From an uncultured Chloroflexia bacterium (GTDB lineage Bacteria > Chloroflexota > Anaerolineae > JAAYZQ01), in NCBI GenBank assembly GCA_963700285.1, contig CAVOXA010000010.1, forward strand, positions 1,600,001 through 1,664,000: DNA of 64,000 nt. The letters run 5' to 3'. Of the stretch, positions 4,281 to 21,379 are shown in pieces. The position numbers were made by a program, and so were the translations under genes. The number at the start of each line of letters is the position of its first letter. Positions within the stretch are counted from its first letter, which is position 1. The notes under the pieces are model-generated. The model did no database searches. It saw only the letters and a list, made by a program, of their open reading frames with translations, and was not told the DNA's origin.

Positions 4281-5051
4281 TCAGGTAATAAGTGCCTGTG
4301 GCTCAGAGATCTGGGACAGTGCTTCTGCCGCCCCTTGTATGAGGAACAGCATGTCGGTGCCGACCGCGATGAGCGTAAAGCCCTGTTCAATGAAGGGCTG
4401 GACGGCAGCGGCATCCACCCCAAAGACTCCGAGCCTCACTCCCGCGGCCAGGCAGGCGTCTCTGATGTGCGCGATGGCTTCCTGGACCTCTGGATCAGTA
4501 ACCTGGCCCATCTTGCCCAGGCTGGCCGACAGATCGTAGGGTCCGATCAAGACCGCATCGATCCCAGGAACGCTGACGATGGCAGCGACATCCTCCAGGG
4601 CGTCGGCATGTTCGATCTGGATGACAACGGATACCGCCTCGTTGGCGCTGTCGACATACTCTTGAAACTGCAGGCCGTAGCCATGGGCGCGGCCGATGCC
4701 CACCCCCCGGGTTCCCTCGGGTGGGTACTTGCACAGGCGAACAACACGCTCAGCCTGCTCAACCGAGTTGACCTGGGGCACAATGATACCCGCCGCGCCG
4801 ATGTCCAGCGCCTTCTTGATCCACACCTCCTGGCCCGCAGGGACCCGGACCAGGCAGGGGCAGCGGGAACCGGCTGCCTGCAGCAGCGCCTGCGCGCTGT
4901 GGCTACCGAACGATCCATGCTCCGTATCGATAAAAAGCCAATCGAACAGCAGGTCTGCCAGCACCTCGGCGATCTCGGGCGCCGGCAGGGTGGCCAGTGT
5001 TCCCACCAGTAGCTCCCCGTCCCTCAGTTTTTGCCTGAACATGTGAGTCAT
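4281..5051 (-). CDS. HpcH/HpaI aldolase family (2-dehydro-3-deoxyglucarate aldolase-like)
   Basis: DWLFIDTEHG, ALDIGAAGIIVP, YPPEGTRG, QIE, IGPYDLSASLG. Confidence 0.9.
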   Translation of the reverse strand: MTHMFRQKLRDGELLVGTLATLPAPEIAEVLADLLFDWLFIDTEHGSFGSHSAQALLQAAGSRCPCLVRVPAGQEVWIKKALDIGAAGIIVPQVNSVEQAERVVRLCKYPPEGTRGVGIGRAHGYGLQFQEYVDSANEAVSVVIQIEHADALEDVAAIVSVPGIDAVLIGPYDLSASLGKMGQVTDPEVQEAIAHIRDACLAAGVRLGVFGVDAAAVQPFIEQGFTLIAVGTDMLFLIQGAAEALSQISEPQALIT

Positions 5052-5086
5052 CGATTCTTCTCCTGTATCAGCATCATGACCTCCCC

Positions 5087-5488
5087 TTACTTCCCGACCC
5101 GCTCAGCAGGCCGGAAGCGCAAGGCTGACCATACCTCGTCAACCGATACCTGGGTCACCGGCCTGAGACTTGGACCGGCCGTCGCCAGGTCCCAAAACAC
5201 ATCCCGCGACAGATCGGTCTCAACTTTCGAGCTTTTCTTGGGGTAGGAGATCCAGAATAGGCCGTCATACTCAGCAGATTCCACAGCCGCCGGCAACAGC
5301 TCATCCAGTTGCCTGCTGTCCCGCGCAAAGAGGTGGACAAAGTCGAACTTGCCCTCGACTACCTCCAAGACCACGACGCCCTCCGGCAGCTCGCCCAGGG
5401 ACGCGATGTAGCCTTCAGGCGCGTTCAGTATGAGCACCCGTTGCCCGGGCTGCATCCTGAGCTTTTTGACCAGATTGGAGTCAGTCAT
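5087..5488 (-). CDS. Conserved hypothetical protein (DUF3052-like)
   Basis: WISYPKKSSKVETDLSRD ... VDEVWSALRFR motif; GGAGG SD. Confidence 0.7.
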   Translation of the reverse strand: MTDSNLVKKLRMQPGQRVLILNAPEGYIASLGELPEGVVVLEVVEGKFDFVHLFARDSRQLDELLPAAVESAEYDGLFWISYPKKSSKVETDLSRDVFWDLATAGPSLRPVTQVSVDEVWSALRFRPAERVGK

Positions 5489-5545
5489 TTTCCCTCCGTA
5501 AGAGATACCAAACCTCCAGGAGCGACTGGCTAGCTCGGCCGTACG

Positions 5546-6541
5546 CTACCCACCACCGGCGCCATATACCTCCGGGTTCACACAATTTGGCAGGCGCTCG
5601 CCCCGCAGGCCGGCCAACAGGTTCTCGGCGGCCATGACGGCCATGCGATCGCGCGTGATCACAGTGGCGCTGCCAATGTGGGGCACGACCAGGCAGTTGG
5701 ATAGAGAAAGCAGCTTGTGGTCGCCTGGCAGTGGCTCTGGGTCGGTAACGTCCAGGGCGGCGCCAGCGATCTGCTTCGCGACCAGGGCATCGTACAGCGC
5801 GTCCGTGTCCACCACCGGTCCGCGAGCAGAATTGACCAGAATGGCCGTCGGCTTCATCTGAGCCAGCGCCCTGGCATCGATCAGGTGGCGCGTTTCCTCA
5901 TTCAGAGGTACATGCAGGCTGACAAAATCCGCCTCGGCCAGCAGCTTTTCCAGGCTACAACGCAGCCCAACGCCGGCAAAGGGCGCTTTCTCAGGATCGC
6001 AATAGGGGTCAAAGTACACGACCCGCATGTCAAAGCCGGTCGCTCGGCGCGCGACTGTCTGCCCGATGCGGCCCATACCGATGATGCCCAGCGTCGCACC
6101 GTGCACGTCGTGGCCCAGTGGCATGGCCTTTCTCCACGCGCCCCACTCGCCAGCTTTGACATATTCGGCACCCTCCCCAATGCGCCGCGCCGCAGCCATG
6201 AGCAGGGCAAAAGCCAGGTCGGCTGTGGTATCGGTCAGCACCCCTGGCGTGTTGCCCACCGGGATTCCCCGGGCCGTGACGGCTGCCACGTCGATGTTGT
6301 CATAGCCAACGGCAAAGTTGCTGACGACCTTTAGCCCTGGCCCGGCGGCGTCCATTAGTACCACGTCCACAACATTGGTAAACATACTCAGCAGCCCAGA
6401 CACGCCACGGATCCTCTCCAGTAGCACATCTCGTGGCATGGGCTCTCTTTGGGTCCAGATATCCGCTTCGCAGCCATCCCGTACCAGATCCAACCCAGCC
6501 TTGGGAATGCTCCCGCCAACGAGTACTCTGGGTTTGTCCAT
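5546..6541 (-). CDS. D-glycerate dehydrogenase / glyoxylate-hydroxypyruvate reductase
   Basis: [44 protein letters not shown]; start at ATG 6541 with AGGAGG SD. Confidence 0.92.
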
Positions 6542-6588
6542 CGTGCTCCTCCTAGCCCTGGAAAGTGGGTTACTCCAGGGCATGCATG

Positions 6589-6966
6589 TTAGTCTTGTAC
6601 CCTTTCGACCTTGATCTCCGTCCCGCCGGGCACGGCATCAAAGGCCAGGGGATCCCCCTTTAGCCGGCCAAAGACATTCACCGGGCTATAAGCCCGGGGC
6701 TCGTCTCCATGGCTGACTGGCGTCGGCCCCCAAAAGATGCAGAAGGCATGGCCCACCGGCCAGTAGCCCAACTCCCCGGGCTCCACAACCTCGCGGGCAT
6801 CGTCCGCCTGCGCCACATGGACCGGGATCTCAAAATAGATCTCGTCCCCCCAGCGGTTGCCCCGCGCCGTTACAGGCAGGGCTTCCCAAATGGCTTTCCC
6901 AGTAGCATTGTCCCCCAGCGTGGCCGTGGCCGTAACGCCCCCGGCGCTGATCTTGATCTTGCGCAT
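6589..6966 (-). CDS. Cyclophilin-like fold protein (DUF369/TM1367-like)
   Basis: [24 protein letters not shown] motifs; start at ATG 6966 with GGAGG SD. Confidence 0.8.
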
Positions 6967-7296
6967 GGCTATCCTCCCCAGACTATGAGTCTCCTCCACC
7001 AGAGACCCGGATAATGTCTTTCCAGGCAATGGTCGACATAAAAAAACCGTCTCGCAAGTGAAAATGGGTTCCTTCCCGTTTCAGTCGATTTTACCCGCAT
7101 ATGCTTTCTATCTGGCATTCACGATGTATTTTTATGTTTAACGGTAAATTCTGGGTTTCCCTGAGCCAAAACAACTCTCTGTTTTCAGTTTTTCTGGACT
7201 GAAATAAGCTAAAATGAACGGTTTTCTGTTTGGTTCTCTGGCCCTTTTTGTCCCTGGCGCCGCGACTCTCTTGAACACCACTCAACCACACTAGAT

Positions 7297-8649
7297 TTAT
7301 GTCACATAGAGCATCAGCAAGTCGTTGACATTGGTGCCAGTCGGTCCAGTGCAGATCAGGTCGCCTAGAAAATCAAAAAAGACATAAGAATTATTGTGAT
7401 CTAGATAGATCTCGGGCTCAAGGCCCAGAGATCGGGCACGGGCAACAGTCCCCCCGGTGGCCACAGCGCCAGCCGCGTCGGTGGGACCGTCGGTACCGTC
7501 GGTACCCAGGGCTACAAGGACAACACCGGGCAATCCCTCCATGGCCAGCGCCGCCGCCAGAGCCAACTCCTGGTTGCGCCCGCCCTTGCCCTCGCCGCGT
7601 ACCCTGACAATGGTTTCACCACCCCAAACCAGGCAGGCCGGCCGGGGCACGGGCCGATTGTAGCTGTGCAGCTCTTTGGCCAGCGCCGCCGCCACGTGGG
7701 CCACCTCACGGGCCTCTCCTTCGACAAAGGTCGAGAGGAGCAGGGCATTCAGCCCCCGGGCGCGGGCCGCATCAACGGCAGCCTGGGCGGCTTGGCGATT
7801 GCTGCCGACGACCACATTGTACACCTGCTCAAACAGCGGGTCTCCTGGCTTGGGGGTGTCAGCCAGACGGCCATCAAGCCCAGCCTCAAGCCGCGCTCGG
7901 ACCGCCAGAGGCAGGCGCTCCACCAGGTCGTAGCGTTCCACCACAGACCACGCGTCGCCAAAGGTACTGGTATCGGGTGACAGAGGGCCAGAAGCAATCA
8001 CGTCCAGAGGATCGCCAACCACATCCGACAGAACCAGACTGGCCACCGGCGCGGGTGCAGCCAGACGAGCCAGGCCCCCACCCTTGATCGCGGAGAGGTG
8101 CTTGCGCACCATGTTCAACTCGACGATGGTCGCCCCGCAGCGCAGAAGCAGCTCCGTCGTATTCTGGAGGTCGTCCAGAGTAAGACCCTCTGCCGGCAGC
8201 GTCATCAGTGCCGACCCTCCCCCCGAGACCACGGCCAGCACCAGGTCGTGCTCCGCCGTCCCTGCCAGCAGGTCCGCCATGCGGCGGGCGCCATCCACTC
8301 CCGCATCGTCGGGCAGGGGGTGGCCGGCTTCCGCCACTTCCACAGGCCCCGTGGCCAAACTTGGGTCGATGTGGTCATATTTTGTGATTGCCAGGCCGCC
8401 TGTCAGCCGCTCGCCCAGGATACCGTACAGGGCGGCAACCATTGCCGTGGCCGCCTTGCCACCGCCAACAACCCACACCCGCTCGATTGTCGCCAGGTCA
8501 TAGGCACGCCCCGCCACGGTCAGCAGGTTCCCCTGGCGCTGGACGTGGCGGCGTACCGCGGCGCCGGGCTCGACAGCATCCAGAGCTGCCTGCTGCACGG
8601 CCAGGATCGTTTCCCTCAGCGCTGATTCCTGGATCGAACGTGGCTCCAT
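7297..8649 (-). CDS. Glycerate 2-kinase (TtuD/MOFRL family)
   Basis: GGGKAA, SGGGSAL, RKHLSAIKGG, SDVVGD, GGET, GGRNQE, TDGTDG, TGTNVND. Confidence 0.93.
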   Translation of the reverse strand: MEPRSIQESALRETILAVQQAALDAVEPGAAVRRHVQRQGNLLTVAGRAYDLATIERVWVVGGGKAATAMVAALYGILGERLTGGLAITKYDHIDPSLATGPVEVAEAGHPLPDDAGVDGARRMADLLAGTAEHDLVLAVVSGGGSALMTLPAEGLTLDDLQNTTELLLRCGATIVELNMVRKHLSAIKGGGLARLAAPAPVASLVLSDVVGDPLDVIASGPLSPDTSTFGDAWSVVERYDLVERLPLAVRARLEAGLDGRLADTPKPGDPLFEQVYNVVVGSNRQAAQAAVDAARARGLNALLLSTFVEGEAREVAHVAAALAKELHSYNRPVPRPACLVWGGETIVRVRGEGKGGRNQELALAAALAMEGLPGVVLVALGTDGTDGPTDAAGAVATGGTVARARSLGLEPEIYLDHNNSYVFFDFLGDLICTGPTGTNVNDLLMLYVT

Positions 8650-8767
8650 CGATCGCCTCCTCAGAACCTATTGAACGATACCAAAACGCCTCGTTTAGGC
8701 TGTAAACGTTTTCACAAGAGCATCCAGGGTCGGCCGGCTCAATCTCGCACCCGAGACTAGCTCAGTG

Positions 8768-9898
8768 TCACACCGTGGGTACATCGTAGCCCTGGAGCTT
8801 GAGATACGCCTCCACACCGTCGAGAAAGAGTTCGCGGTACTCGGCGGAAGTGGCTTTGCCAATGTGGCCCACCCGGAAAATCTCGCCCTTTAGGCCCTGC
8901 AATCCGCCACCTATCATGATCTGCCACTCCTCGAGAAGGTAGCTTCGAAGGTCTTCGACGTCCATCCCGGGCAGACGGCGCACTGTGGTGATCAACGGTG
9001 AGGCATTGGCCTCAGGCATGAGCATCTCGAAACCCATCCTTTTCAACCCGCCACGGACGAATTGGGCCGCTTCGACGTGCCGGGCATAGTGGGCATCGAG
9101 GCCATGTTCTTCAATCAGCCGTAGGCTGGCCAGTAGGCCCAGAATGTTGTGCGTCGGCAGTGTGGTAGGATAGGGATGCCAGGGACCCCACTGGGTCTTG
9201 TAGTCCTTCCAGGTACGCAGGTTCAGGTACCAGCCGTGGGCCCCCTCGCGCTTGCGCTCCATCTGGTCCCAGGCGCGCTGGCTGACGGACACGGGTACCA
9301 GGCCGATGGGGCCCGCCAGGCACTTGTTGCCAACGGTGACACACACGTCGATGCCCCACTCATCCACCGGCAGCGGCATGCCGCCCAGGGTCGAGACCGC
9401 ATCCAGGATGAGGGGCACCCCAAACTCTCCAGCAACGGACACGATCTCCTCCAGGGGATTCAATACGCCGGTAGAGGTCTCCAGGTGAACGACGGCCACG
9501 GCCTGGATATCGGGTTCGGCAGCCAGTTCCTGCCGTATCGCCTCCGGATCCACCGGTTGCCCCAGCGGCGCCTCAACGGTCCGCACCTCCAGGCCGTGGC
9601 TCCGCCCGATGGTGGCCATCCTCTCGCCAAAAAAGCCGTTGTGGGCGACCAATACCTTGTCGCCCCGCCCGGCCAAGCTGCCGATGGCCGCCTCCAAACC
9701 CACCGTCCCGGGTCCGATGAGCAGGAGCATCTCGTTCTGGGTGCCAAAGACCCGCTGGAGTCGCTCCAGGGTCTCATCATAGATCTCCATCCAGGCCGGG
9801 CCATAGTGGGCGCGCACCGGCTCGGCCATGGCCGCCAGGACCTCATCCTCCACGCCTACTGGCCCGGGGATCATCAGTTTGATGTGCTGTGCTGTCAA
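8768..9898 (-). CDS. Class V aminotransferase (alanine/serine-glyoxylate or serine-pyruvate aminotransferase)
   Basis: LMIPGP, VHLETSTG, DAVS, GNKCL (PLP lysine), FRVGHIG; start TTG 9898 after AGGAGG. Confidence 0.88.
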   Translation of the reverse strand: MTAQHIKLMIPGPVGVEDEVLAAMAEPVRAHYGPAWMEIYDETLERLQRVFGTQNEMLLLIGPGTVGLEAAIGSLAGRGDKVLVAHNGFFGERMATIGRSHGLEVRTVEAPLGQPVDPEAIRQELAAEPDIQAVAVVHLETSTGVLNPLEEIVSVAGEFGVPLILDAVSTLGGMPLPVDEWGIDVCVTVGNKCLAGPIGLVPVSVSQRAWDQMERKREGAHGWYLNLRTWKDYKTQWGPWHPYPTTLPTHNILGLLASLRLIEEHGLDAHYARHVEAAQFVRGGLKRMGFEMLMPEANASPLITTVRRLPGMDVEDLRSYLLEEWQIMIGGGLQGLKGEIFRVGHIGKATSAEYRELFLDGVEAYLKLQGYDVPTV

Positions 9899-9971
9899 GA
9901 TCAGCCTCCTCGCTACATGCTGCATTCGTAATGGTAAAGGGATCACCCCACAGAGCAAACCCACCGCACAG

Positions 9972-10000
9972 ATTATACCACCCTCCCGCGCCAGAAGCAA
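9972..10000 (-). promoter_or_regulatory. sigma70-type promoter for the aminotransferase cluster
   Basis: TTGCTT-17 bp-TATAAT with TG extension on the minus strand. Confidence 0.6.
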
Positions 10001-10046
10001 CCCCTCCACGTTGGGGGCATTCGAAGCAGAACAGTGCGGGTCACGA

Positions 10047-10093
10047 GGCCTGGATATAGTAGTTCCATGCAAGCCATTCACTACATGTAGTAG
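10047..10093. promoter_or_regulatory. Tandem NrdR-box-like sites
   Basis: tcaCtAcATgTaGtag at 10078-10093 fits acaCwAyATrTwGtg; weaker ggcCtggATaTaGtag at 10047-10062; starts are 31 bp apart. Confidence 0.5.
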
Positions 10094-10129
10094 AGGTTGC
10101 CTTGGGGTTGATACAGACGTTCGGATCAT

Positions 10130-10285
10130 CGTGGAGCAGGTCGGGGTCATCGCATGAGAGAAAGCTGTTGTCCAGAGGTCCGAAGGCGATGCCACGCTGC
10201 TGCAACTGCCGCTTGGCATATTCATTACCGTTCAGGCACATCTTGACGCCGTAGGGAGCCATAGGTACACACTTCAGTGAAAGTG
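10130..10285 (-). mobile_element. Remnant of a transposase-like gene
   Basis: Fragment APYGVKMCLNGNEYAKRQLQQRGIAFGPLDNSFLSCDDP resembles a widespread, poorly characterised IS-like protein family (recalled, not searched). Confidence 0.55.
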
Positions 10286-10454
10286 ACCAACCCGTGGCCC
10301 TACCGCTCCCGCCACATATTGTCACAGACTTTGGGATTTTCTTGAGCGAAGGCTTCAGCCAATAACTCCCCCGACCAGCGTGCGTAGGCAATGCCCTCTC
10401 CGGTTAGCTGGAGTGATCTGCTCTCTCAACCCTATGCGGCCTCGGCGCAGCGCG

Positions 10455-10692
10455 GGCGATGAGTTTTTCGATCTCCAGCGGTTCGGCTTTGGCCGGATCG
10501 CGCAACAGAGAGATGGCTTCCTGCGAACACTGGGAGACGCATACCCCACAGCCGGCGCACAGGTCCTCATCCACCTGGGCGACATGGCCCGAGGAGGCCA
10601 GCATGGGCGTGCCGTGCTGGTGGGCCTGCATCGCCCCATAGCAACAGGAGCAACAGTTGCAGATGGCATAAAACCGGCCCAGCATGGCATCC
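10455..10692 (-). pseudogene. Displaced 3' end of the 4Fe-4S gene, copy A (internal deletion)
   Basis: KDAMLGRFYAICNCCSCC...DEDLCAGCGVCVSQC...EPLEIEKLIA; the segment between the two CxGCGxC motifs is missing. Confidence 0.85.
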
Positions 10693-10783
10693 TTGTAGTA
10701 GTGGACACAACCGACAAGCGTCGTTTGCTTTGACGACACGGTTGGTGGTACCGCCGCCTACACGGAGACGAGAAAGGTCATAG
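10693..10783. repeat. Conserved ~91-bp junction element X, copy A
   Basis: ttgtagtagtggacacaa...tttgacgacacggttggtgg...acggagacgagaaaggtcatag; also at 12574 and 13694. Confidence 0.9.
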
Positions 10784-10856
10784 CTAACCAGAACTCTGGT
10801 ACTCTTGGTACCACGGTATTCATAGGTCAAGGCAGGGGGGCTAGCCGCGCACGCCC

Positions 10857-11258
10857 CTAACGGGACTTGTACTCCCAGTAGGAGCTGTAGAATTCGTCGT
10901 GAAGCATGGTCTCCTCATCATCGGCCGCCGACGGCTTGTCCGCAAAGCCAACACCTGACCAGAATTCCAAGTCGCCTAGCTCAGGATCGGAAACACCATC
11001 CATCAACGAAAAAAGCCGAAAGAGCGGGGCACTGGCGGTATCTGCGACAACCTTTCTCAAAGCAGAGCGAGCCGCAGGTGACAGTTCCAGGTTCTTGAGA
11101 GCGACTCTCTCTTCTGTAGTGAGAGTTTCGCCTGGAGGATACGTCACGTCAGTGCCGTGTTGCGAAACGCCAAACCAGTTCAATGCTACCGTGGTTGCCT
11201 CAGCGATTTCCTTGTGCATCTCAAAGAACAGCGCTTGTTGTATTTCCTCTCTCGTCAT
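10857..11258 (-). CDS. Hypothetical cargo protein (133 aa)
   Basis: Acidic ORF ending LHDEFYSSYWEY; no family confidently recognised. Confidence 0.65.
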   Translation of the reverse strand: MTREEIQQALFFEMHKEIAEATTVALNWFGVSQHGTDVTYPPGETLTTEERVALKNLELSPAARSALRKVVADTASAPLFRLFSLMDGVSDPELGDLEFWSGVGFADKPSAADDEETMLHDEFYSSYWEYKSR

Positions 11259-11492
11259 CTCGCCTGCCTTTCAGGCATCGATTTTCTCACATCGCGGGCT
11301 AGCGGTTGACGCATCAGCCGCCGCTGGGTGACACCACACACCCAACTTGACCCAATGTACTTCCAAAATTCGAACTGGCAGCAACAAGGCTTTCGATCAG
11401 GCGGAAGGAACTTGGCATCACGCCAAGGAAAAGAGCGTCCTGAACGCTACGCACTTTCGCTATTTGTCAAGGCGTGCCCACGTTGACCGTGA

Positions 11493-11879
11493 CTACCACA
11501 TCACCGTAACTGGATACTGCTCGAATAACGGATCGTTGCTGAGCAGGATTGCGTTCTCGGCATTCGCCTGGGCAATCAATAAGCGGTCAAACGGGTCTTT
11601 GTGGGGCGTAGGAAGGGCCTCCAGCGCCAAGACATGCTCCAGGTCAACCGGCAGGACCTCAAGGTCGTTCGTCTTACATTGACTTTCAAACACTTCTCGC
11701 AAAGGCGACTTGAGTTTCAGCTTGCCCAATTGGGATTTGATCTGCATCTCCCAAACGCTCGCCACGCTGAGCAAAAGCGTATTCGACCGATCCTGGCACA
11801 GCGCAAGTGCGTTCGACGACAACTTGCCCGGCTCGCTGTCCCACCAGATGAAGGTGTGCGTATCAAGACGCAGTCTCAT
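11493..11879 (-). CDS. vapC: PIN-domain toxin (VapC family)
   Basis: LDTHTFIW, SVASVWEMQIK, HKDPFDRLLIAQA, LLSND. Confidence 0.92.
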   Translation of the reverse strand: MRLRLDTHTFIWWDSEPGKLSSNALALCQDRSNTLLLSVASVWEMQIKSQLGKLKLKSPLREVFESQCKTNDLEVLPVDLEHVLALEALPTPHKDPFDRLLIAQANAENAILLSNDPLFEQYPVTVMW

Positions 11880-12111
11880 CCGTCCCCGTCCAGAATTCAT
11901 CCGGCAGCGGCTCGTCGAAATCCTCGCTCGTCCAAATTGCCCCGCTGTGAAGTCCCGCGATGCGTGGCGTCATCGGCGAAGCAATGGGTACCAGGCGCGC
12001 GAGGGGGACATTGTCTTGGGTCAGGATGATCTCTGCCCCCTCGAATGTCTTGGACAACAACTCTTCCAGATTTATCTTTGCCTCTTGCACATCAATTGTC
12101 TTTGCACCCAT
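11863..12111 (-). CDS. Phd/YefM-like antitoxin
   Basis: EAKINLEELL ... EIILT ... PLARLVP ... DFDEPLPDEFW; overlaps the toxin start. Confidence 0.88.
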   Translation of the reverse strand: MGAKTIDVQEAKINLEELLSKTFEGAEIILTQDNVPLARLVPIASPMTPRIAGLHSGAIWTSEDFDEPLPDEFWTGTDETAS

Positions 12112-12167
12112 CTGCGCCTCTCATAATTCGTACCTTCTCCCCAGCTGCTGACAATGGCGATGGTGAC

Positions 12168-12196
12168 ATTATGCACCTGAAATCCTTTCCTGTCAA
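12168..12196 (-). promoter_or_regulatory. Promoter of the Phd-VapC operon
   Basis: TTGACA-17 bp-CATAAT on the minus strand. Confidence 0.65.
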
Positions 12197-12387
12197 GCGA
12201 TGGCAGTAGCCTCTGGTAGATTGAGTTGATCCCGGGCAAGTCCGGCACACTGTCGATCAAGCAACGTCGAACAATAAGCCACATGACGGTTAGCATAACC
12301 GGCATATATGGTCCTATCTGCGATAAACGACGCCGACTGCGAATGTTCCATGGCGGTGCTTCTTGCGAACGCCATTGGCTCTCAGTT

Positions 12388-12573
12388 CTATCCAGTTACC
12401 GCTGCCTCTGCGATGAGCTTCTGAATCTCCAGCGGCTCGCCCTTGGCCGGATCTCGTAGCAGTGAGATGGCTTCTTGCGGACAGTGCGCAACGCACACCC
12501 CGCAGCCCATGCAGGCAACCGCATCGATGCGGGCGAATCCGTCGTCTACCGAAATCGCCGCAAACTGGCAAAT
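12388..12573 (-). pseudogene. Displaced 3' end of the 4Fe-4S gene, copy B (short)
   Basis: CQFAAISVDDG...CMGCGVCVAHCPQEAISLLRDPAKGEPLEIQKLIA; begins directly at element X. Confidence 0.85.
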
Positions 12574-12670
12574 TTGTAGTAGGGGGCACAATCAACAAGC
12601 GTCGTTCGTTTTGACGGCACGGTTGGTGGTGCCTGCCGACGGCTGCCAGGAGGCAAGAAACGCCACCGCT
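12574..12670. repeat. Conserved junction element X, copy B
   Basis: 50 of the first 57 nt identical to copy A by hand alignment; distal part more diverged. Confidence 0.85.
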
Positions 12671-12732
12671 AAATGATTTCCACAACCTGACGGCAGCGGG
12701 CGACCGAGAGATGCTTCATCACCTCGCGCATT

Positions 12733-12763
12733 TTGACAGAACGTGTATATTGTTGTAATATAC
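12733..12763 (+). promoter_or_regulatory. brnTA promoter with palindromic operator; probably leaderless
   Basis: TTGACA-17 bp-TAATAT; gtatatt-N5-aatatac palindrome; ATG 9 nt after the -10 with no SD. Confidence 0.6.
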
Positions 12764-12770
12764 GAGTACC

Positions 12771-13094
12771 ATGAAAAGAGCCATCGCCGACTGCAAAGGC
12801 TTCCAATGGGATGAAGGAAACGAGGACAAGAACTGGTACCTTCATCAAGTCACCGATGGTGGATGTGAACAGGTCTTTTTCAATCTGCCCCTCATCGTTG
12901 CTCCAGATACAAGACATTCACAAACAGAACAACGGTACTACGCGCTGGGGCGCACGGATGCAGATCGCTGGCTATTCGTCGCGTTTGTGGTCAGGAATGA
13001 TTTGATACGGGTGATCTCTGCCCGTGATATGAATCAGAGGGAAATGAGAAGATATGCCGACAGAATTCAAAGAGATCCCAGATTTCAAAGATGA
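12771..13094 (+). CDS. brnT: BrnT family toxin
   Basis: FQWDEGNEDKN, HSQTEQRYYALG, IRVISAR. Confidence 0.9.
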   Translation: MKRAIADCKGFQWDEGNEDKNWYLHQVTDGGCEQVFFNLPLIVAPDTRHSQTEQRYYALGRTDADRWLFVAFVVRNDLIRVISARDMNQREMRRYADRIQRDPRFQR

Positions 13095-13350
13095 AGAGGA
13101 AGAGCGTGCGTTTTGGGCGACGCACGACTCGTCAGAGTATATTGATTGGGATAGCGCCGAGTCCGCGATCCTGCCACAGTTGAAACCATCAACCAAGACT
13201 ATCTCCCTACGGCTACCCGAGGCAATGCTGGACGAGCTGCGAGTCATCGCCAACAAACGCGATGTGCCATATCAGTCCCTGATCAAGGTCTTTCTAAAGG
13301 AGCGCATTGATCAGGAACTGGAGCAACACGCCGGGGTCAAAGTCAGGTAA
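13054..13350 (+). CDS. brnA: BrnA/CopG-like antitoxin
   Basis: IPDFKDEEEERAFWATHD, TISLRLP, DVPYQSLIK. Confidence 0.9.
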   Translation: MPTEFKEIPDFKDEEEERAFWATHDSSEYIDWDSAESAILPQLKPSTKTISLRLPEAMLDELRVIANKRDVPYQSLIKVFLKERIDQELEQHAGVKVR

Positions 13351-13693
13351 GCCCCGTCGCCGCTGCCTCGGCGATGAGCTTCTGAATCTCTAGCGGCTCC
13401 CCCTTGGCCGGGTCGCGTAGCAGGGAGATGGCTTCCTGCGGACAGTGGGCGACGCACACGCCACAGCCCATGCAGGCGGTGGCATCAATGTGGGCGAATC
13501 CGTCGTCTACCGAAATCGCCGCAAACTGGCACGAGTCGGCGCAGGTGCCGCAGCGGCGCACAGCTCCTCATCCACCACCGCCACGTACCCCGACGACGCC
13601 AGCATGGGGGTGCCGTTGTTCCAGGCGTTCATCGCTCCGCAGCAGCACGAACAGCAGTTGCAGATGGCATAGAACCGATTGAGCATCGCATCT
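13343..13693 (-). pseudogene. Displaced 3' end of the 4Fe-4S gene, copy C (one frameshift)
   Basis: KDAMLNRFYAICNCCSCCCGAM...; single missing base near 13555; then CGTCADSCQF...CMGCGVC...EPLEIQKLIA. Confidence 0.88.
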
Positions 13694-13784
13694 TTGTAGT
13701 AGTGGACACAATGGAACATGTCCGTTCGTTTTGACGGCACGGTTGGTGCTCCCTCCACCTGTACGGAGACGAGAAACATCATAG
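13694..13784. repeat. Conserved junction element X, copy C
   Basis: Same 91-nt length as copy A; 72/91 identical by hand alignment; first 18 nt identical. Confidence 0.9.
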
Positions 13785-14048
13785 TTGGGAGCCCCATCCA
13801 GGATAGACCACACAACGCGTACAGAACCAGTGGTCTGGACGCTTCTGTTTGCTCAGAATTGTCTTGGGTCGATAGGTCACGAACTCGGTATGCCTCGTCA
13901 TGGGCACATGCTACCGGGAGGTAGGAAAACGGTCAAGTATAGTGACGAGTCCCAGCGCGGTGAGCTGTCCCCCAAAGTCCCCACGAATCCCGGCAAATAT
14001 GGCACAGTATACGGGCACAATCGTCAGGGATAGAGGAGGAGAACAAAT

Positions 14049-14252
14049 ATGTACAGAACGGAACTACCTGGCTTGGTGCTCACGCCGGCCTATAGTCCAG
14101 AAGACTCGAGCTTGTCCGCATGGCTAACCGAAGTGCTCCTGGCCTTCCGGGGAGACCTGGCGACGGTGGAACTCTGTCAGACCGAGAAAAGGATCGTGCA
14201 ACACCTGCCCAAGAACCCGCCGCGGTATCTGGAAGCCGTGACAAGGGCTTGA
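14049..14252 (+). CDS. Small hypothetical protein
   Basis: 67-aa ORF with a strong GAGGAGG SD. Confidence 0.45.
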   Translation: MYRTELPGLVLTPAYSPEDSSLSAWLTEVLLAFRGDLATVELCQTEKRIVQHLPKNPPRYLEAVTRA

Positions 14253-14492
14253 TTTCCGGGCTGCTTGCGGGTATGGTGGTGATATGGACAACGCCCTGTG
14301 ATGATGTGCGCACCATCCAGGGCAACGACCAGACCCACACGGACGGTCCGCTACGTAGTGGGGATTCCAAGTCCATATACTACCAGCAATAATTCCAGGG
14401 CAACTTTGCCGTCCGGGATGGGATGAGACCGGAGATTCAGGCTGCCGTGGGGGTTGAGACCTCACAAGCCAACACCAAGGAGGAATTCAGCC

Positions 14493-15001
14493 GTGAGCAA
14501 AGTCAAAGAGATCTTGCGAACTTAAGGGCCTGAGGTCTGGTCGATGGCACCGGATGCTACGGGGTACGATGCGCTTAAACTGATGGCCGATTGGAATGTA
14601 GGTGCCGTGCTCGTGATGGACGCCAACCACCTGGTGGGCATCCTATCAGAGAGGGACTATGCCAGGAAGGTCATCCTCCACGGCAAGTCGTCCAAGGACA
14701 CATCGGTCTGGGAGATCATGACCCAAAGGGTGGTCTATGTGCGCCCCGAACAGACCGCCGAAGAGTGTATGGCACTGATAACCGACAAGCGGGTTCGGCA
14801 TCTGCCCGTCCTGGAAGACGACCAGGTGATCGGCGTCATTTCGATCGGGGATGTGGCAAGAGCATCATTTCTGAACAGGGGTTCATCATCGAGCAGCTCG
14901 AACGCTATGTCTCGGGGACCGTATATCGGAGACGGCAATCTGGCAGATCAGATGGGAGGCTAGAAGAAGACGCCCTGCGATCTAGCACCATCCACGGGTA
15001 G
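14493..15001 (+). pseudogene. CBS-domain protein, disrupted
   Basis: GILSERDYARKV, RVRHLPV, SIGDV; GTG start after AGGAGG, in-frame TAA at codon 11 and a frameshift near 14855. Confidence 0.8.
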
Positions 15002-15043
15002 ACGGGCGACCAAACCGCTGCGAAGGGGAGAGGAGCCGCCGCA

Positions 15044-15358
15044 ATGACCGAAACCCCCAATGACGACAAGTCTGGCTTCGCAACCGAGAAGCCAGAACAC
15101 TGTCATGCCTGCTCCCAGCTTATTCGTCCTGGCCAGATATACTTTCTGACAATTGGAAACGCCGTGCTCTGCGGGGACTGCATTAAGGCTACTGACGCAA
15201 TCCGCGTGGTCGATGAACTGGTAGTGGTGATTGAGGGTGGCAAGCTGTTGGTTCAGCGCGGGAGCGCTGCGGGCGAGGTTTCGCCAGGTGAGGTGCGGCA
15301 CCTGGTTGATGCACTGGTAGAGGGGACGGAGAAGCTGGTGGGTCGGCAGACACATTAG
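15044..15358 (+). CDS. Small hypothetical protein with CxxC...CxxC (possible Zn-binding)
   Basis: HCHAC...LCGDC; GAGGAG SD. Confidence 0.5.
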   Translation: MTETPNDDKSGFATEKPEHCHACSQLIRPGQIYFLTIGNAVLCGDCIKATDAIRVVDELVVVIEGGKLLVQRGSAAGEVSPGEVRHLVDALVEGTEKLVGRQTH

Positions 15359-16088
15359 CCCAAGGAGTGAGTGGGTATGCTCGCCCAAAATGCGCATCCG
15401 TTCGAAAACCCATCGCTCAGGGATGGTAACCTTTTTGGATTGCTCGGGCTGAGCGGCTGTTCCCTCAGCGGATGGCATTTTTCGGCCAGGACACGGCGAG
15501 GCTCCAGGCCACTCGTGGACCGGACGCTGCCGTCTGGACTTTCTAGCCGATCTATAGCTATGGAATCGATGCCTTGTGGAGCGCAACCAGCCCGGCTTCT
15601 CGCTCGCTGAAAAGCATCTTGAGAGTGCCGTACAGTACGTCCGATGGGGGCGCGCCCTGGGGGAAGCGGTTGAGCCTCGTGATCGGCTCTTGATAGCCCG
15701 ATCTGCTTGTGCGGTGTGCCATTTCTGCAATCCCTGGTAGGCGCCCGCCTCGGCGACGACGCTTTATCCGACGCTTTGGCTTCGAGCGCCTGGCGCCGTG
15801 ACGTTTCGAGTGGTGTCTGCCAGCCGGGTGGGCTCCTATCTAGCGGATTTTTTCATCACCTTTGCTGGTAGCCAGAAGTATGGTTCCAACGATTGGGGTC
15901 TCAACCTCCTCGCTTCGGAGTTGGCTCAATAGCGATTGTGGTGTACAATCAGCCTGCACCTGCGGCAAGAAGTTGCAGCGGTCCCCAATTGCCGGTCCAC
16001 GGCCCGGACAGCATCAAGACGGTTTTCCAGGCCGGCGCTTCGTTCCGTTTTGTGTTGGCGACAGGGTTGTCCAAGAAAAGGTGGCGCA

Positions 16089-18518
16089 ATGTCCAAGAGA
16101 GTCGTTTCCCTCGTAACCATCTGGCTGTTGCTGTCGACGCTGGTCCAGGCGACGGGTCGCCCCGCCCTCGAGAGACGGCCCATCCAAGATGCTCCAGCCG
16201 CCGGCAAGCTGAATGTTGAACTGTTGGGCCATTGGTCGGACCACAATGTCCTCGATCTGGAGGTGCGTGGCGATCTAGCCTTTATGTCCTACTATGATGG
16301 CAGTTCGGACGCGTTCGGTCACGTCTGGCTGGTGGACGTCTCCGATCCCACTGATCCGCACCGGCGCGCCGGTCCGGACCTGATCACGGCCGGCTTGTAC
16401 GCGGTATTCAAGGCGGTCAGTGCCGACGACCAGTTTGTCTATGTGGCCGAAGAATCGCTGCAAGGGAGCGGGTCGTCGGTGGAGGCGTATACCGAAAGCA
16501 ACCTGGAGGAGTTCTGCAGCTATTACACGGATTCCTCGATGGTTGAGATGTGGACCGGCGCAACGCCCAGCGGGGAGTATTTGTTTGTGGCCCAACGCAA
16601 TGGCCTCTTGGTTGACGGGTCCGAACAAGGGGAAGGGCTTAACTGCGGCGCGTTGGGCACCTACGAGGCGCCCAGCGAGTTGACCGCCGCCGCCCACACG
16701 GCGGACTTTGCCTACCTGGGCACATCGGACGGCCGCCTACTGGTGGTGGACGTTGCTTTTGCCACCAAGCCCTCAGACCCAAAGGAAAAGAGCCGCAGCG
16801 TGCTGCTGCCCGGCGGCATCGATGCCATGGCCGCCGCACCCGGCGTCGTTTACCTGGCCCAGGGGACGACGATCAAGATTGTGGACGTGTCCAATCCCGC
16901 TTCTCCGGTGGTAGCCAAGACGTTTACCAGTCCTGTGGCAGTGGCCCAACTGGGGGTAGCCAGCGGTTACCTGTACGCCGCCTCGGCGGGAGGGCTCTAT
17001 GTCTTTGACGTGGGGGACAACAACGCGCCCAACCTGGCCGGCTACTACCTCGACCAAACCGACGGCGGCTTTGGCGGGGCGCTCTATTTGGCCAATGGCC
17101 TGGTCTACACGGGCGGTCCGGGAGGGCTGAACATCCTGCGGTTTGCGCCCGGCGACCAGCCAAAGGGAGCCCTTCTGATACAGCCTGGGGAACCAGGCAG
17201 TGTCTCGCTGAATGGAGTGGAACTGTCTTATCCCTGCGAACTCCAGATGCCAGCCCTGGGCGCCAAGGGGCCGGTGGTTGATGCAGCTTGCGCAGAGGGT
17301 AAGCAAGGAGACAAAGTCGAGATATTGAAAAAGAGAACCATGATCTACATGTATGTCGGGTGCATCGTTACGATGTTTGAGCAGTTCAGGAGGGCGCTTG
17401 GGGTCCGCCGTCTGGAGGATGGTGACCGGTGGCTCGTCAGCGTCGCGTTCTTGGGGGCTCATGTGGTATGTTCGGAAAAACTTCCGTCAAGAGCGCAAGA
17501 CACAGCCTCGCCCTACTTGGTGCTCGATCACGAGTCCGGGGCTCTGCAGTACAGCTTTCTGCTGGAGGAACAATCCGTAGAGGTCAGAACCCAGGCTGTC
17601 GCGATACGCTCCGACGGCGCCAACACGGTGAGCGTCGACCACGACCCGCAGGCCAACCGGACGACGGTGAGTTGCTACAGCGGCTCTCTGACTCTCACCC
17701 CTAAGAACAGCTCCCTGCCCCCCTTCACCCTGGGGGCCAGCCAGGAGGTGGAGGTCACGGCGGAAAGCGTCAGCCCCATCGAGCCCATCGACTACCCCTA
17801 CTCCAGCTTCCTGCCGCTGACCGCGAGAGCGTACGCTAGTGCGCCGCCCAGCGGCTGGCGCACCCTGCTGCGGGAGGATTTTGAGGGCGTATTCCCCGGC
17901 GCCTGGTCGGTGGCCGATGGCTCGGCCGGCTCCGGCGAGCATCATTGGGCCAGCCGCACCTGCCGGCCCCAGGCTGGGGGGCGCAGCGGATGGGCGGTGG
18001 GCGGCGGCTTTGGCGGCGCGGCCCTGCCCTGCGGCAGCGACTACCCGCCCGAGGTCGAAGGTTGGATGATGGCCGGCCCCTTTGATCTGTCGGACGCCAC
18101 CGCAGCCGAGGTGACCTTCCAGCGCTGGCTCAATTCCGAATCGGAGGACCGCCTGCTCTGGCTAGCCTCCGCCGACGGCGTGAATTTCCAGGGGTGGCAG
18201 GATTCAGGGGCCGTGGGCGATTGGCAGGAGACGGTGTTTGACCTGACGAATGTGCCAGGCCTGGGCGATCTGACGGGGGATCCGGACGTTTGGATCGCCT
18301 TTGTGTATTCCAGCGATGCAGCAGGCAGCAAGCCCGAGGGCGCCTATGTGGACGATATCCTCATGCGAAAATACCTCCCGGCGACGGGTGGGGCTCAGAG
18401 CGCCCCGCAGCCGGGCGCTCGACAGGCGGCGCCTCAGGAGACGGAAGAGCTGGCGCCAGCATCATGGGTGCTGCCCGCTGCAGGAGTTGAGCGACGAGGC
18501 TCGGCGAGCCCCTACTGA
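16089..18518 (+). CDS. Secreted multidomain protein (LVIVD-like repeats, internal FLPL motif, C-terminal beta-sandwich)
   Basis: Signal peptide MSKRVVSLVTIWLLL; repeats VWLVDVSDP/IKIVDVSNP/LYVFDV; YSSFLPL; EDFEG...YVDDI domain. Confidence 0.75.
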   Translation: MSKRVVSLVTIWLLLSTLVQATGRPALERRPIQDAPAAGKLNVELLGHWSDHNVLDLEVRGDLAFMSYYDGSSDAFGHVWLVDVSDPTDPHRRAGPDLITAGLYAVFKAVSADDQFVYVAEESLQGSGSSVEAYTESNLEEFCSYYTDSSMVEMWTGATPSGEYLFVAQRNGLLVDGSEQGEGLNCGALGTYEAPSELTAAAHTADFAYLGTSDGRLLVVDVAFATKPSDPKEKSRSVLLPGGIDAMAAAPGVVYLAQGTTIKIVDVSNPASPVVAKTFTSPVAVAQLGVASGYLYAASAGGLYVFDVGDNNAPNLAGYYLDQTDGGFGGALYLANGLVYTGGPGGLNILRFAPGDQPKGALLIQPGEPGSVSLNGVELSYPCELQMPALGAKGPVVDAACAEGKQGDKVEILKKRTMIYMYVGCIVTMFEQFRRALGVRRLEDGDRWLVSVAFLGAHVVCSEKLPSRAQDTASPYLVLDHESGALQYSFLLEEQSVEVRTQAVAIRSDGANTVSVDHDPQANRTTVSCYSGSLTLTPKNSSLPPFTLGASQEVEVTAESVSPIEPIDYPYSSFLPLTARAYASAPPSGWRTLLREDFEGVFPGAWSVADGSAGSGEHHWASRTCRPQAGGRSGWAVGGGFGGAALPCGSDYPPEVEGWMMAGPFDLSDATAAEVTFQRWLNSESEDRLLWLASADGVNFQGWQDSGAVGDWQETVFDLTNVPGLGDLTGDPDVWIAFVYSSDAAGSKPEGAYVDDILMRKYLPATGGAQSAPQPGARQAAPQETEELAPASWVLPAAGVERRGSASPY

Positions 18519-18622
18519 ACCGTATGGGGTCAGAAAGGGATACCTGGCCCACTGTCGGCAACCAAGCTCTACACCCCACATCAGCCTGGGACTGGTGCCG
18601 ATCTGGTCGCTGCTGCTTTTAC

Positions 18623-18658
18623 CTGTCCTGGCCGAATATTCTCATCCGGCCAGGACAG
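18623..18658. terminator. Hairpin between convergent genes
   Basis: ctgtcctggccg / cggccaggacag perfect 12-bp stem. Confidence 0.45.
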
Positions 18659-18800
18659 CCAATGGTCGCGAGGCTTGACTCTTCCGGCTACCAGGCGATT
18701 GATCTGCCGCGCAAACTCGCGCTAGCAGGTGGACTTGGGATCCCGGGTCTTGTAGGCATCGCTGGGCAAAAGAACCGGGCTCACACTGGCCAACTATCTA

Positions 18801-19743
18801 CTATCTTTCTGTGACTTGAGCGGCCTGGGCCATGAGTTTTTGGATCTCCAGCGGTTCGCCCCGAGATGGGTCGCGCACCAAGGTGATACCTTCCTGAGCA
18901 CACTTGGAGACGCACACGCCACAGCCCATACAGGCAGCAGGACTCGATCACTGCAGTTCCATTGTCCACGCTAATCGCTTTGAATTGGCAATAGTCGGCG
19001 CAGATACCGCAGCCTGCGCACAGATCCTCATCCACCTGGGCGACATAGCCCGAGGAGGCCAGCATCGGCGTGCCGTTCCGGTGGGCGTTCATCGCCCCGC
19101 AGCAGCACGAGCAGCAGTTGCAGATGGCGTAGAATCTGCCCAGCATAGCATCTTTGAAAAAGGCGTGGTGCACGTGCCCCCGCTCGTGTTCGGCGCGCAG
19201 GATCTCCACGGCCTCGTCTGGACTGATCCAGCGCGAGCGCTGGGGGTGGTGTTCGCCGACAAAGCTGGCAAAAGGCTCGCCAATGACCATGCACACGTCC
19301 AGCGGCTCGCAATGGTTGGGTCGTACGCTGCGGCAGGGACAGTCCAGGACCACGATGTGGTCCGGATCCTGCAGCACAATGTCGCGGGCCAGGGCGTAGG
19401 GAATGGCCTGCTCCAGGTCGGTCAGGACGACCTCCTCCTCGACCGTAACCAGTTGGGTCGCCGCCTCCAGGGACACCACCTTGCCGTGATAGGTATCGGC
19501 AAAGGTGATGCGATCCGGGTCGTCCTCCGCAGGCGGCGGCAGCAAGCGGCTCACCAGGCGAACCGGCGGCCCAAAGATGCGGGCCAGCGGATGGGTGCCG
19601 GCCCCAATGCCAATATAGAGATAGGTCCAGCGGCCATACACGTAGGCGTGCAGAAAGTTCAGGAGGGAGTAGCCGGGCGTATTGCGGGCTTCTTTGGCAA
19701 AGGCGCGCGTGGCCGGCCGGCCTGATAGGAATTTGGGCTTCAT
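18801..19743 (-). CDS. 4Fe-4S dicluster binding protein (CPCR and CNCCxCCC type); apparent +1 frameshift near 18940
   Basis: DCPCR, CMVIG, AICNCCSCCCG, CAGCGICADYC; after the shift CMGCGVCVSKC...EPLEIQKLMA...stop at 18801. Confidence 0.88.
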
Positions 19744-19962
19744 TGAATCGTCCTCGCTTTCGTCCATTCCACGCAATTGTAGCACAAAGCCCGGCGCTTG
19801 GCAATGAGGGTTCGCCTTCAACCAACAATGAGCCACCAATAGCTACCGGTCACCGGCCGGCTGACGAGCAGGCAACATTTCGGGTGCCTTCGCCTCGGCC
19901 TGGCAGTTCACAGGCACCCCCTTAAGGTGGCCGAAAAAGTGTCCAAACAAAGGGGTGCACTT

Positions 19963-20173
19963 CTTATTTTTCTCGCAGTTGCTCCAGCACGCTATCAAAC
20001 AGCCGTGCTTCAGCACCATGTTCAATCAACCGGTCAGGGAACTCGCTCAACACACTAAAGTTGAAGCCTTTGTAATTCAACGGCAGATGCAGAGGGTATT
20101 TCCAATCCAGGCGGACACGGGCAGCGTTCGCCGCCGCTCTATCCGACAGTTTCTCGAGGAACTGGAATATCGT
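19963..20173 (-). mobile_element. IS1182-family transposase fragment
   Basis: Minus-strand translation FQFLEKLSDRAAANAARVRLDWKYPLHLPLNYKGFNFSVLSEFPDRL matches the N-terminal region of this family. Confidence 0.75.
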
Positions 20174-20236
20174 CGGAGGGGTATAGTGAATTCGCGGGTT
20201 GGGATTTTTGTCTATGCAGTCCCACGCTCCACTAGG

Positions 20237-21379
20237 TCATGAATAGCGCTGGCCGACAATGCGCAGGGACACTACCCCCATCACAATGCTCAGGGCTACC
20301 AGAGCTGTCACTTGGGGCCACAGCTCCCGCAACCCTGCCCCTTTGAGCATGATGCTGCGGATGATAATCAGGTAGTGTTGGAGAGGCGCGAAGCGAGAGA
20401 TAAACTGTAGAAAGGACGGCATGTTTTTGACCGGTACCATAAAACCGGAGAAAGCAATCTCTATCATGGCCAGAATAAAGACAAAGAGGATCGCCTGTTG
20501 CTGGGTACGGGAGATGGCCGAGATGACCATGCCCCAGCTCACTACTGTCGCGACAAAGAGTAGGGTCAAGGCTGCTAGCAAAAACACGGAACCATTCATC
20601 GGTACTTGAAATACGAGCAAACTGATGGCCCACATGATGGCAAAATTCAGGCTACCAATGGCAAGGGCCGGGATGCCCTTGCCCAAAGCCAGTTCAAGGC
20701 GACGCAATGGTGTCACCATCAACTGCTCCAGTGTGCCGAGTTCACGTTCGCGTGCCAGGCCAAGGGATGCGATTGCCAAGGTGACTTGGTAGGTGATAAA
20801 GCCCAGTTGAGCAGGAATGGAGAAATCACGAAAGTCCATCGAGGGGTTGAAGCGTATGTCGGTTCGGAAATCGATAAACTCGGTGGAAACCAGGCCATAA
20901 TTGGCGGCAAGATCCGCCGTCAGGCGGCCTACCGCGCCTGTAGCAGCGCCGAGGGTTGTAGAGGCGGCTAGCGTATTGGTTGCATCGGCGATGATACCGA
21001 CTTGTATCGGAGCAACGGCTCCCGTCTTCTGTTGTGGTGAACGGGCGTTGGTTAGCTCCTGCGAAAAGCCTGCAGGAATGACTACTGCCAGGTGGATGTC
21101 TCCCCGATCCATCAAGTTGCGTACTTGGTCCATGCTCTGAACATGGTAGACGATGTGTAACTCTTCGGTGTTATCCAGGTTGACCACGAGTTGGCGGCTG
21201 AGGCGGCCGTGATCCTGATCCAGAATTGCCACGGGCTGTTCGGTGATCCCGCGTTCGACATTCTGGGCCATGAGGATCAACTGCAGGGCAGGTGCCAAAA
21301 GGATAAAAACAGACAGCATTTTGTCACGCCTGAACTGGATCAGTTCTTTGATAATCAAGTTGCCTGTACGGATGATCAT
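20237..21379 (-). CDS. ABC-2 type transporter permease
   Basis: KELIQFRRD, ARERELGTLEQLMVTP, SRTQQQA, LKGAG. Confidence 0.9.
   Translation of the reverse strand: MIIRTGNLIIKELIQFRRDKMLSVFILLAPALQLILMAQNVERGITEQPVAILDQDHGRLSRQLVVNLDNTEELHIVYHVQSMDQVRNLMDRGDIHLAVVIPAGFSQELTNARSPQQKTGAVAPIQVGIIADATNTLAASTTLGAATGAVGRLTADLAANYGLVSTEFIDFRTDIRFNPSMDFRDFSIPAQLGFITYQVTLAIASLGLARERELGTLEQLMVTPLRRLELALGKGIPALAIGSLNFAIMWAISLLVFQVPMNGSVFLLAALTLLFVATVVSWGMVISAISRTQQQAILFVFILAMIEIAFSGFMVPVKNMPSFLQFISRFAPLQHYLIIIRSIMLKGAGLRELWPQVTALVALSIVMGVVSLRIVGQRYS

Follow-up and report, generated by a model that had tools for sequence, protein, structure and literature searches.

The 64,000-nucleotide stretch analyzed here (the window; contig CAVOXA010000010.1, positions 1,600,001 to 1,664,000, from an uncultured Chloroflexia bacterium) contains three copies of a 91-base element, X, each joined to a displaced 3' half that represents a 4Fe-4S (Fer4) gene, of which the window also has an intact copy upstream. 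Judged by sequence comparison, X is the element-side half of the attachment (att) site of a large serine recombinase (LSR) together with the last 29 codons of the gene for that LSR, and the three junctions belong among LSR attachment-site scars, for which recombination activity is predicted. An earlier, sequence-only reading of the window had named a recombinase arm and the tail of a lost plus-strand open reading frame (ORF; GHNxxxxFxLTxRLVxP, with a stop at the distal edge) as candidates for X. Both proved right, the ORF being that of an LSR, and arm and tail are one and the same thing. Beyond that reading, the stacking of such scars behind an intact gene is a recurring architecture at many genes. 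Almost certainly, the att site lies inside the recombinase gene, the elements split the genes that they enter, and the stacks consist of an intact target, cargo, and an X joined to a foreign 3' half, without a recombinase.

Three X copies with one boundary

All three copies are on the plus strand (A, 10693-10783; B, 12574-12676; C, 13694-13784). Recomputed ungapped identities are 72/91 for A and C, 50/57 for A and B, and 46/57 for B and C (the latter two over the first 57 letters), confirming the copies, positions, and identities given in the sequence-only reading. BLAST among the copies, run against the 7.05-Mb genome of the window (G000, 89% complete; other G labels denote genomes of relatives, L labels fetched loci, P labels database proteins, and C labels contigs), yields E values of 1e-10 to 1e-15. 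A profile of the three copies finds a fourth X on another contig of G000 (E 2e-9; next match, E 0.2). This genome holds five X copies in total: the three in the window, one by a radical-SAM gene, and a decayed one joined to a metG 3' half, 9 kb behind an intact metG. No inverted X is listed in window positions 5000 to 22000, and none was found in G000.

Every X in the window adjoins, at its TT side, a minus-strand 3' piece of the 4Fe-4S gene. As first read, X is absent from the intact gene and its boundary is the same in A, B, and C, even though the gene side of B is deleted; the recomputed alignment agrees on both points. The claim of a sharp boundary holds insofar as the boundary is fixed, but the TT at its start does not mark X alone: all three scars have this crossover dinucleotide in common with the intact gene (where it lies at 19153-19154, within the K codon of FKDAML), and the element-specific arm begins at GTA. 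A public sediment metagenome contig crosses junction A with 11 differences in 241 letters, indicating that this junction is not an assembly artifact; on its gene side, the overlap with a contig from a second metagenome run is just 10 letters long. Contigs of a public sediment metagenome contain parts of the window's units at 94 to 97% identity, and related populations therefore carry such parts. At window position 19154, a relative's 251-base contig (run X4, record 24) spans the 4Fe-4S gene's 5' half and ends at the crossover plus three bases, possibly an assembly fork at the site; the contig is too short to read.

X as the tail of a large serine recombinase gene

Collecting and aligning homologues, as the sequence-only reading had suggested, uncovered a plus-strand coding signal. 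Homologues of X in relatives (401 genomes of the class were screened, as contigs) keep the plus-strand peptide HNxxxPFxLTARL/IV with synonymous variation in the Leu, Thr, and Arg codons, their insertions and deletions come in whole codons, and all three stop codons are used. Among ten close copies, pairwise differences at the first, second, and third codon positions number 0/0/40 in GHN and 100/25/154 in the core from F to P. A minus-strand peptide (TNRAVKAN) that shares third positions with the plus frame was ruled out: only the plus frame preserves six-fold Leu and Arg codons, in-frame indels, and protein homology.

A profile of the X peptide has matches in 72 of the 401 genomes at a cutoff of E 0.05, which admits chance matches, and 48 distinct copies reach at least 17 bits among the loci fetched up to that point. 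Searched against 1.84 billion proteins, the profile returned 14 matches, and three proteins (P0005, P0008, and P0011) and locus L070 share one domain upstream of the X peptide. Neither Pfam nor the Atlas recognized the bare X peptide, no extended form of P0008 turned up in a search for one, and a viral scan with a four-row alignment was also negative. The upstream domain has 47 matches in 37 of the 401 genomes, many in open frames of 500 to 630 codons. (Both genome tallies include G357, flagged as unpublished, on which no specific claim depends.) All 11 of the tested ORFs with this domain at the C terminus contain Resolvase, Recombinase, and Zn-ribbon domains.

Most matches to the upstream domain (43 of 47) end by profile position 149, and the HN motif occupies positions 144 and 145; beyond this motif, the DNA of the relatives' LSRs, which are 500 to 600 amino acids long, turns into the 5' half of a cut-off host gene. 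Among the roughly 25 matches listed, the host genes cut include those for cysteine desulfurase, pseudouridine synthase, PIG-L, GlcNAc 2-epimerase, and glmS. Within 120 database homologues, P0084 alone scores above 10 bits for the native tail (P0108 scores 8.5), and the others have unrelated ends after the common S/T-rich stretch. P0084 is a natural full-length LSR of 549 amino acids that combines the X tail with Resolvase, Recombinase, and Zn-ribbon domains; its single-sequence structure prediction was unusable (mean pLDDT, 41). A tail-like end is also retained at viral contig locus L292. In G000, no match to PF07508 (Recombinase domain) was found, and elsewhere in that genome only a C-terminal LSR remnant occurs, interrupted by another insertion.

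Some related loci show further arrangements. Two (L134 in G275 and L136 in G391) have tandem recombinase genes at the element end, of which the outer gene alone is cut at the site. In four others (L140 in G139, L131, L129, and L128), related recombinases overlap the start of the next gene, which we take to be mevalonate-diphosphate-decarboxylase-like, and seemingly supply its first codons. In L043, L064, L092, and other diverged X copies, the distal part resembles by eye a sigma-70-like promoter on the minus strand (TTGC.., 17 bases, TA(C/T)AAT) that points into the displaced 3' half; the resemblance is weak in the window copies.

Crossover and arms of the attachment site

Both ends of an element were recovered in four relatives, on one contig about 43 kb apart in G268 and on two contigs each in G275, G338, and G100. 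The crossover dinucleotide is the same at both ends in four of four (GA, TC, TT, and TT), the element arms mirror each other, and joining the two host sides gives one gene; in G268 and G275, the recombinase frame runs on into the X peptide. Matched crossovers, mirror-image arms, and a continuous frame argue that X in the window comprises a crossover, an arm, and a recombinase tail. A fifth two-ended case, in G092, lies on one contig at an intergenic site and has decayed ends. Since the attachment site lies inside the recombinase gene, integration would leave the long enzyme body at one end of the element and X at the other.

All eight arms of the four two-ended elements score on one matrix at offset 0, with a mean of 11.8 bits on a matrix built from 48 X-side arms that include at least one of the eight. 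Arm conservation extends to position 24, and positions 13 to 17 form the most conserved motif, of which a shifted copy is not clear in the host arms (best offset reached by 66 of 2,000 shuffles). A reversed attP/attB geometry was not supported by the arm analysis. Gene-splitting elements and stacks use one and the same crossover in cysteine desulfurase (G100 versus G072) and in glmS (G013 versus G006).

Stacks at other genes and in other genomes

The targets seen are the 4Fe-4S gene, metG, glmS, and the genes for cysteine desulfurase, PIG-L, GlcNAc 2-epimerase, and pseudouridine synthase, among others, mostly entered in antisense; stacks occur in relatives at metG, cysteine desulfurase, glmS, and radical-SAM genes. 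An intact gene, cargo, X, and a 3' half follow one another on a single contig in G005 and G017 (the Fer4 gene), G019 (metG), and G072 (cysteine desulfurase), and multi-unit stacks are present in G012, G018, G006, G009, and G072. Of 13 metG 3' copies printed, 12 start at one crossover with an X-type arm. In a survey of 51 loci, X occurred in 41, a recombinase in 7, and both in none; the loci span 2 to 20 kb each, and therefore only the contiguous cases are informative about the absence of a recombinase. The displaced fragments in stacks are protein-coding halves of 300 to 770 nucleotides (nt). Tabulating the genes that flank X elsewhere, another step that the sequence-only reading had named, returned host gene halves and toxin-antitoxin cargo, with PIN, MazE/F, HEPN/nucleotidyltransferase, AbiE, HicA, and CopG families abundant and larger genes present too.

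G000 has a second stack (C10:641500-652500; L142 and L236), in which an intact metG is accompanied by ABC transporter genes, a remnant of the metG end, a MazF-type pair, and an X and a metG 3' half, both decayed; its MazF-type unit is 85 to 86% like units in G013 and G009. At G000:C1:1124440-1126723 (L037), a whole radical-SAM gene with one frameshift is followed, after about 30 bp, by X with an HNH-like fragment and by a radical-SAM end fragment, and in G019, X is joined within the CxxxCxxC motif of the same radical-SAM family; the radical-SAM and HNH-like labels at these two loci are our assumptions from motifs.

Features of the window

The scars, displaced halves, and cargo of the window are listed in Table 1. 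The radical-SAM label of the fragment that abuts X copy C is presumptive, being taken from a CxxxCxxC motif. The intact 4Fe-4S gene has one surplus base near 18945 in this assembly, and its reading frame shifts there. Single-base frameshifts at 18945, at 13552, and in the metG and radical-SAM genes of G000 interrupt genes that are otherwise intact, suggesting sequencing errors in this assembly; relatives' contigs have an extra base at 13551-13553.

Table 1. Coordinates of the intact target, scars, displaced halves, and cargo in the window
Feature	Position	Strand	Remarks
Displaced 3' half A	10404..10694	-	Internal deletion of ~90 nt
Crossover dinucleotide TT, scar A	10693..10694	.	Identical in intact gene at 19153-19154; geometry as in 4/4 two-ended elements
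X copy A	10694..10783	+	Predicted att arm ~10695-10718; last 29 LSR codons; stop 10781-10783
133-aa protein, cargo	10857..11258	-	No Pfam family
Phd/YefM-type antitoxin (under Pfam cutoff) and PIN-domain (VapC-type) toxin, cargo	11493..12111	-	
Displaced 3' half B	12388..12575	-	Deletion from just past crossover to second cysteine cluster
X copy B	12574..12676	+	Crossover TT, predicted att arm and recombinase tail; 4-nt insertion after RLVVP codons
BrnT toxin and CopG/BrnA-type antitoxin, cargo	12771..13350	+	
Displaced 3' half C	13343..13695	-	Near full length; 1-nt frameshift ~13552
X copy C	13694..13784	+	Crossover TT, predicted att arm and recombinase tail; stop 13782-13784
5' fragment of presumed radical-SAM gene	13785..13901	-	Abuts X copy C
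Cargo between intact gene and scar C	13902..18780	.	Without recombinase gene
CBS-domain gene	14544-14963		Within 13902..18780 cargo
LVIVD-repeat gene	16089-18518		Within 13902..18780 cargo
Intact 4Fe-4S (Fer4) gene	18801..19743	-	Target site; crossover 19153-19154

The fragment at 10041-10391, between the last displaced half and an aminotransferase gene, has no Pfam match and presumably resembles a transposase family common in Chloroflexota. A tRNA-Asn gene lies at 22657-22732, 3 kb upstream of the intact 4Fe-4S gene, whose neighbors differ from the era-like neighbor found in five relatives.

Origin of the displaced halves

Half A matches the intact gene at 83% over 237 nt, with 11/5/22 differences at the three codon positions, and half C matches it at 76%, with 20/12/43. 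In G019, four metG halves contain no stop or indel and are 84 to 88% alike, with mostly synonymous differences. Because the differences in A, C, and the G019 metG halves fall mostly at third or synonymous positions, these halves are not decayed duplicates; other displaced copies are clearly decayed.

The best explanation for the stacks begins with an element that would integrate through the att site inside its recombinase gene, splitting a protein-coding target gene, and that would carry, just inside its X end, the whole target gene in a foreign version. This spare copy would complement the break, so that even metG could serve as a target. The stranded host 5' half and the spare would then undergo homologous recombination, which would delete the recombinase and the backbone, leaving a mosaic intact gene, cargo, X, and the old 3' half, in that order, plus a fresh target site at which the cycle could repeat. 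Toxin-antitoxin cargo would likely guard the remnants against loss. Each scar would then have a separate recombinase allele and a separate foreign half, and ordinary integration would suffice. As a whole, this explanation (an LSR half-site and tail at a TT crossover, stacked by repeated integration and spare-copy deletion) appears to us slightly more probable than improbable; its particular steps of a complementing spare, recombination-driven deletion of the recombinase, and retention of the remnants by toxin-antitoxin genes are an even call.

An element in G338 has the form of an intermediate. Exactly three matches to the target occur there: a 5' half by the recombinase, a 3' half by X, and, running in the direction of the split target, a whole copy that lies 190 bp inside X. 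The congener G392 matches the split halves at 84.7% and 88.4% and the spare at 78.1% and 78.9%, and with the gene neighbors this marks the split gene as likely native and the whole copy as likely foreign. At L162:4875-4876 (G338:C167), the AA crossover of the split native gene corresponds to AG in the spare, a single case; such a change would make the spare immune to its own recombinase.

Recombination with a spare copy requires a switch in ancestry upstream of the crossover. The intact gene of the window is 90% identical to that of the congener G001 before the crossover and 78% after it, and other pairs are 64 to 75% identical before and 66 to 83% after. Rare states that are shared place the switch at alignment columns 428 to 457, about 165 nt upstream of the crossover (column 616). 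An earlier test had at first favored replacement exactly at the crossover (synonymous divergence, 0.21 versus 0.39; P = 0.004), but change-point tests did not place the switch there: the interval from synonymous differences (codons 128 to 245) includes the crossover (codon 196), and that from all differences (codons 229 to 238) excludes it. Two other congeneric metG pairs, in which no stacks were seen, have a weak switch upstream.

Several observations weigh against spare-copy recombination. The metG genes of G000 and G001 have no clear switch, and the mosaic could lie in G001, whose 3' half groups with G013 and G007 (76% support). The G338 intermediate is one case, on two contigs joined by inference, and the intact copy beside X in G100 is inverted. 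No spare target copy was found in the whole G268 element or in the fetched ends of the G275 element, and the model does not explain how an element gains a whole spare. Among the matches listed from the 401 genomes, which were followed by 195 weaker ones outside the list, no LSR adjoined this 4Fe-4S gene's 5' half, and a metagenome search with a pattern for the recombinase-side junction on the gene gave only four false matches, presumably chemotaxis-kinase-like genes. Finally, compact units of a 3' end, toxin-antitoxin genes, and X recur across genera at 78 to 93% identity, a better fit to units that move as such than to independent shrinkage.

Alternative explanations

Movement of whole units is what a shuttle would achieve. 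An element would enter the intact gene of a stack, excise at the outer scar, and pick up a unit of 3' half, cargo, and X; in a new host, it would integrate by attP and later excise at the inner X junction, restoring the gene with a foreign 3' half and an extra cassette. All of these reactions are ordinary (attP x attB and attL x attR), and the principle has been published for tandems of tyrosine-integrase elements (PMC5704250). Compact units common to different genera, fresh halves with a synonymous bias, and contiguous cases without a recombinase between the intact gene and X all agree with a shuttle. We nevertheless regard it as unlikely, given that it predicts a switch exactly at the crossover, whereas in the one strong test the switch lies about 165 nt upstream, that it requires a transient break in metG, and that it leaves the first scar and the whole foreign copy in G338 unexplained; nor did any element turn up that combines an internal X and 3' half with a recombinase at its far end.

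A switch away from the crossover, like the lack of a recombinase gene in G000, would also be expected if recombinases had made the junctions once and the units now spread without them, each unit, bordered by the intact gene and a 3' half, entering a relative by double homologous crossover and adding one cassette. Some metG-linked X copies that are arm-only, or that carry a derived insertion common across genera, point the same way. Sequences only 75 to 88% identical are, however, a poor substrate for homologous recombination, and neighboring halves are just that much alike. Moreover, the X copies of the window differ in a codon-like manner, with the frame to the stop kept in A and C, as expected if each X came from a different working recombinase gene. 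Such recombinase-free spread therefore seems quite improbable.

Exact junctions, compact toxin-antitoxin cargo, and functional-looking 3' halves would fit an integron-like process, in which a recombinase supplied in trans places small circles, each with a hybrid site of host arm and element arm and a replacement 3' half, directly at the site in the intact gene. PhiC31 integrase, though, even as hyperactive mutants, gives little or no product from attB x attL or attB x attR (PMC2475636), and the switch point lies away from the crossover, making this process very unlikely.

Two further candidates from the sequence-only reading, a TGT-starting transposon end and an RNA element, fell away, and its view that X is unlike attC stood. 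TGT-ended transposons (Tn7 and IS481 types) have an invariant terminal TG(T) and a second, inverted end; homologues of X start with other dinucleotides set by the target, so that such an end is not supported, and the copies are direct, no inverted second end having been found in G000. As RNA, X has no Rfam match, 12 folds gave z scores of -2.5 to +1.6 with none consistent on either strand, and the variation follows codons. The TGT at the start of X in the window and the fold of copy A (z -2.5, plus strand) thus leave either identity a negligible chance, since the start depends on the target, the other 11 folds are weaker or worse than shuffles, and the sequence continues a recombinase frame.

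Relation to known elements and implications

Streptococcal elements of the integrative and conjugative (ICE) and the integrative and mobilizable (IME) types that enter rumA by a single serine integrase have one att end in the target, the second being located within the gene for the integrase, and integration swaps 3' parts, altering the integrase C terminus (PMC4701971). The elements described here resemble them in having a Resolvase, Recombinase, and Zn-ribbon enzyme whose frame crosses the att site and is split on integration. In contrast to the one dispensable target of those elements, which is left disrupted, many targets are used here and stacks lie behind an intact target; rumA itself was not encountered, the targets seen being other genes.

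In tandems of ICEs or IMEs with cis-mobilizable elements (CIMEs), integrase-less remnants accumulate at one site by repeated site-specific integration; this accretion occurs at gene-end sites that integration regenerates, and site-specific serine recombinases are described as disrupting dispensable genes (PMC5704250). The stacks are similar in that the integrase is lost and remnants pile up at one site. A CIME, however, keeps both attL and attR, whereas only junctions of a host 3' half with X occur here and the intact gene has no recombinase-side arm. Tyrosine-integrase islands (Islander) target tRNA and tmRNA genes, with the replacement fragment forming part of attP, and like the stacks they show a regenerated target followed by displaced fragments in the same orientation and tandem arrays; they differ from the stacks, which have a serine recombinase tail at the junction, protein-coding halves, and integrase-less units (PMC4383910). 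Thus, the stacks resemble ICE and CIME accretion in their working and tyrosine-integrase islands in their look, and they lack a defining feature of each.

The 2-bp crossover and the arms conserved to position 24 are like those of phage serine integrases (LI/A118, with half-sites of about 25 bp, PMC3783163; phiC31, PMC2475636), from which the arms differ in that their most conserved motif lies at positions 13 to 17. An att site inside a serine-integrase gene is known from the rumA ICEs. The literature covered, with most subscription papers and the supplements outside its scope, describes no gene-restoring stacks of the present kind, whether in protein-coding or in essential genes.

Integron cassette arrays are stacks of short, toxin-antitoxin-rich cassettes with a repeated recombination site at each boundary. 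The stacks described here share these short toxin-antitoxin cassettes and the repeated bounding site, but X is a predicted serine-recombinase half-site without an attC-type hairpin, and each unit holds half a host gene.

Gene-splitting elements and their stacks supply naturally paired recombinases and sites, whose crossovers are predicted and lie in many genes, and they allow a direct test of whether loss of the last 29 residues alters the activity or direction of the enzyme. Since most database sequences carry host-derived tails, a working enzyme would be mis-synthesized from them.

Serine integrases are held to disrupt the genes that they enter, and their targets are hence held to be dispensable. 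In the present stacks, scars accumulate behind intact genes, including metG, which implies a route of target repair that was not found described. This route may account for the exchange of half-genes in housekeeping enzymes and for arrays of toxin-antitoxin genes without an integron integrase. More tentatively, and with a probability below even, LSR elements of Chloroflexota may make protein genes, including the essential metG, into renewable landing pads, each visit repairing the gene by a foreign allele and leaving a toxin-antitoxin or defense cassette; the results would be an integron-like array, an exchange between species of the C-terminal half of a housekeeping enzyme, and a swap of the recombinase tail that could act as a switch.

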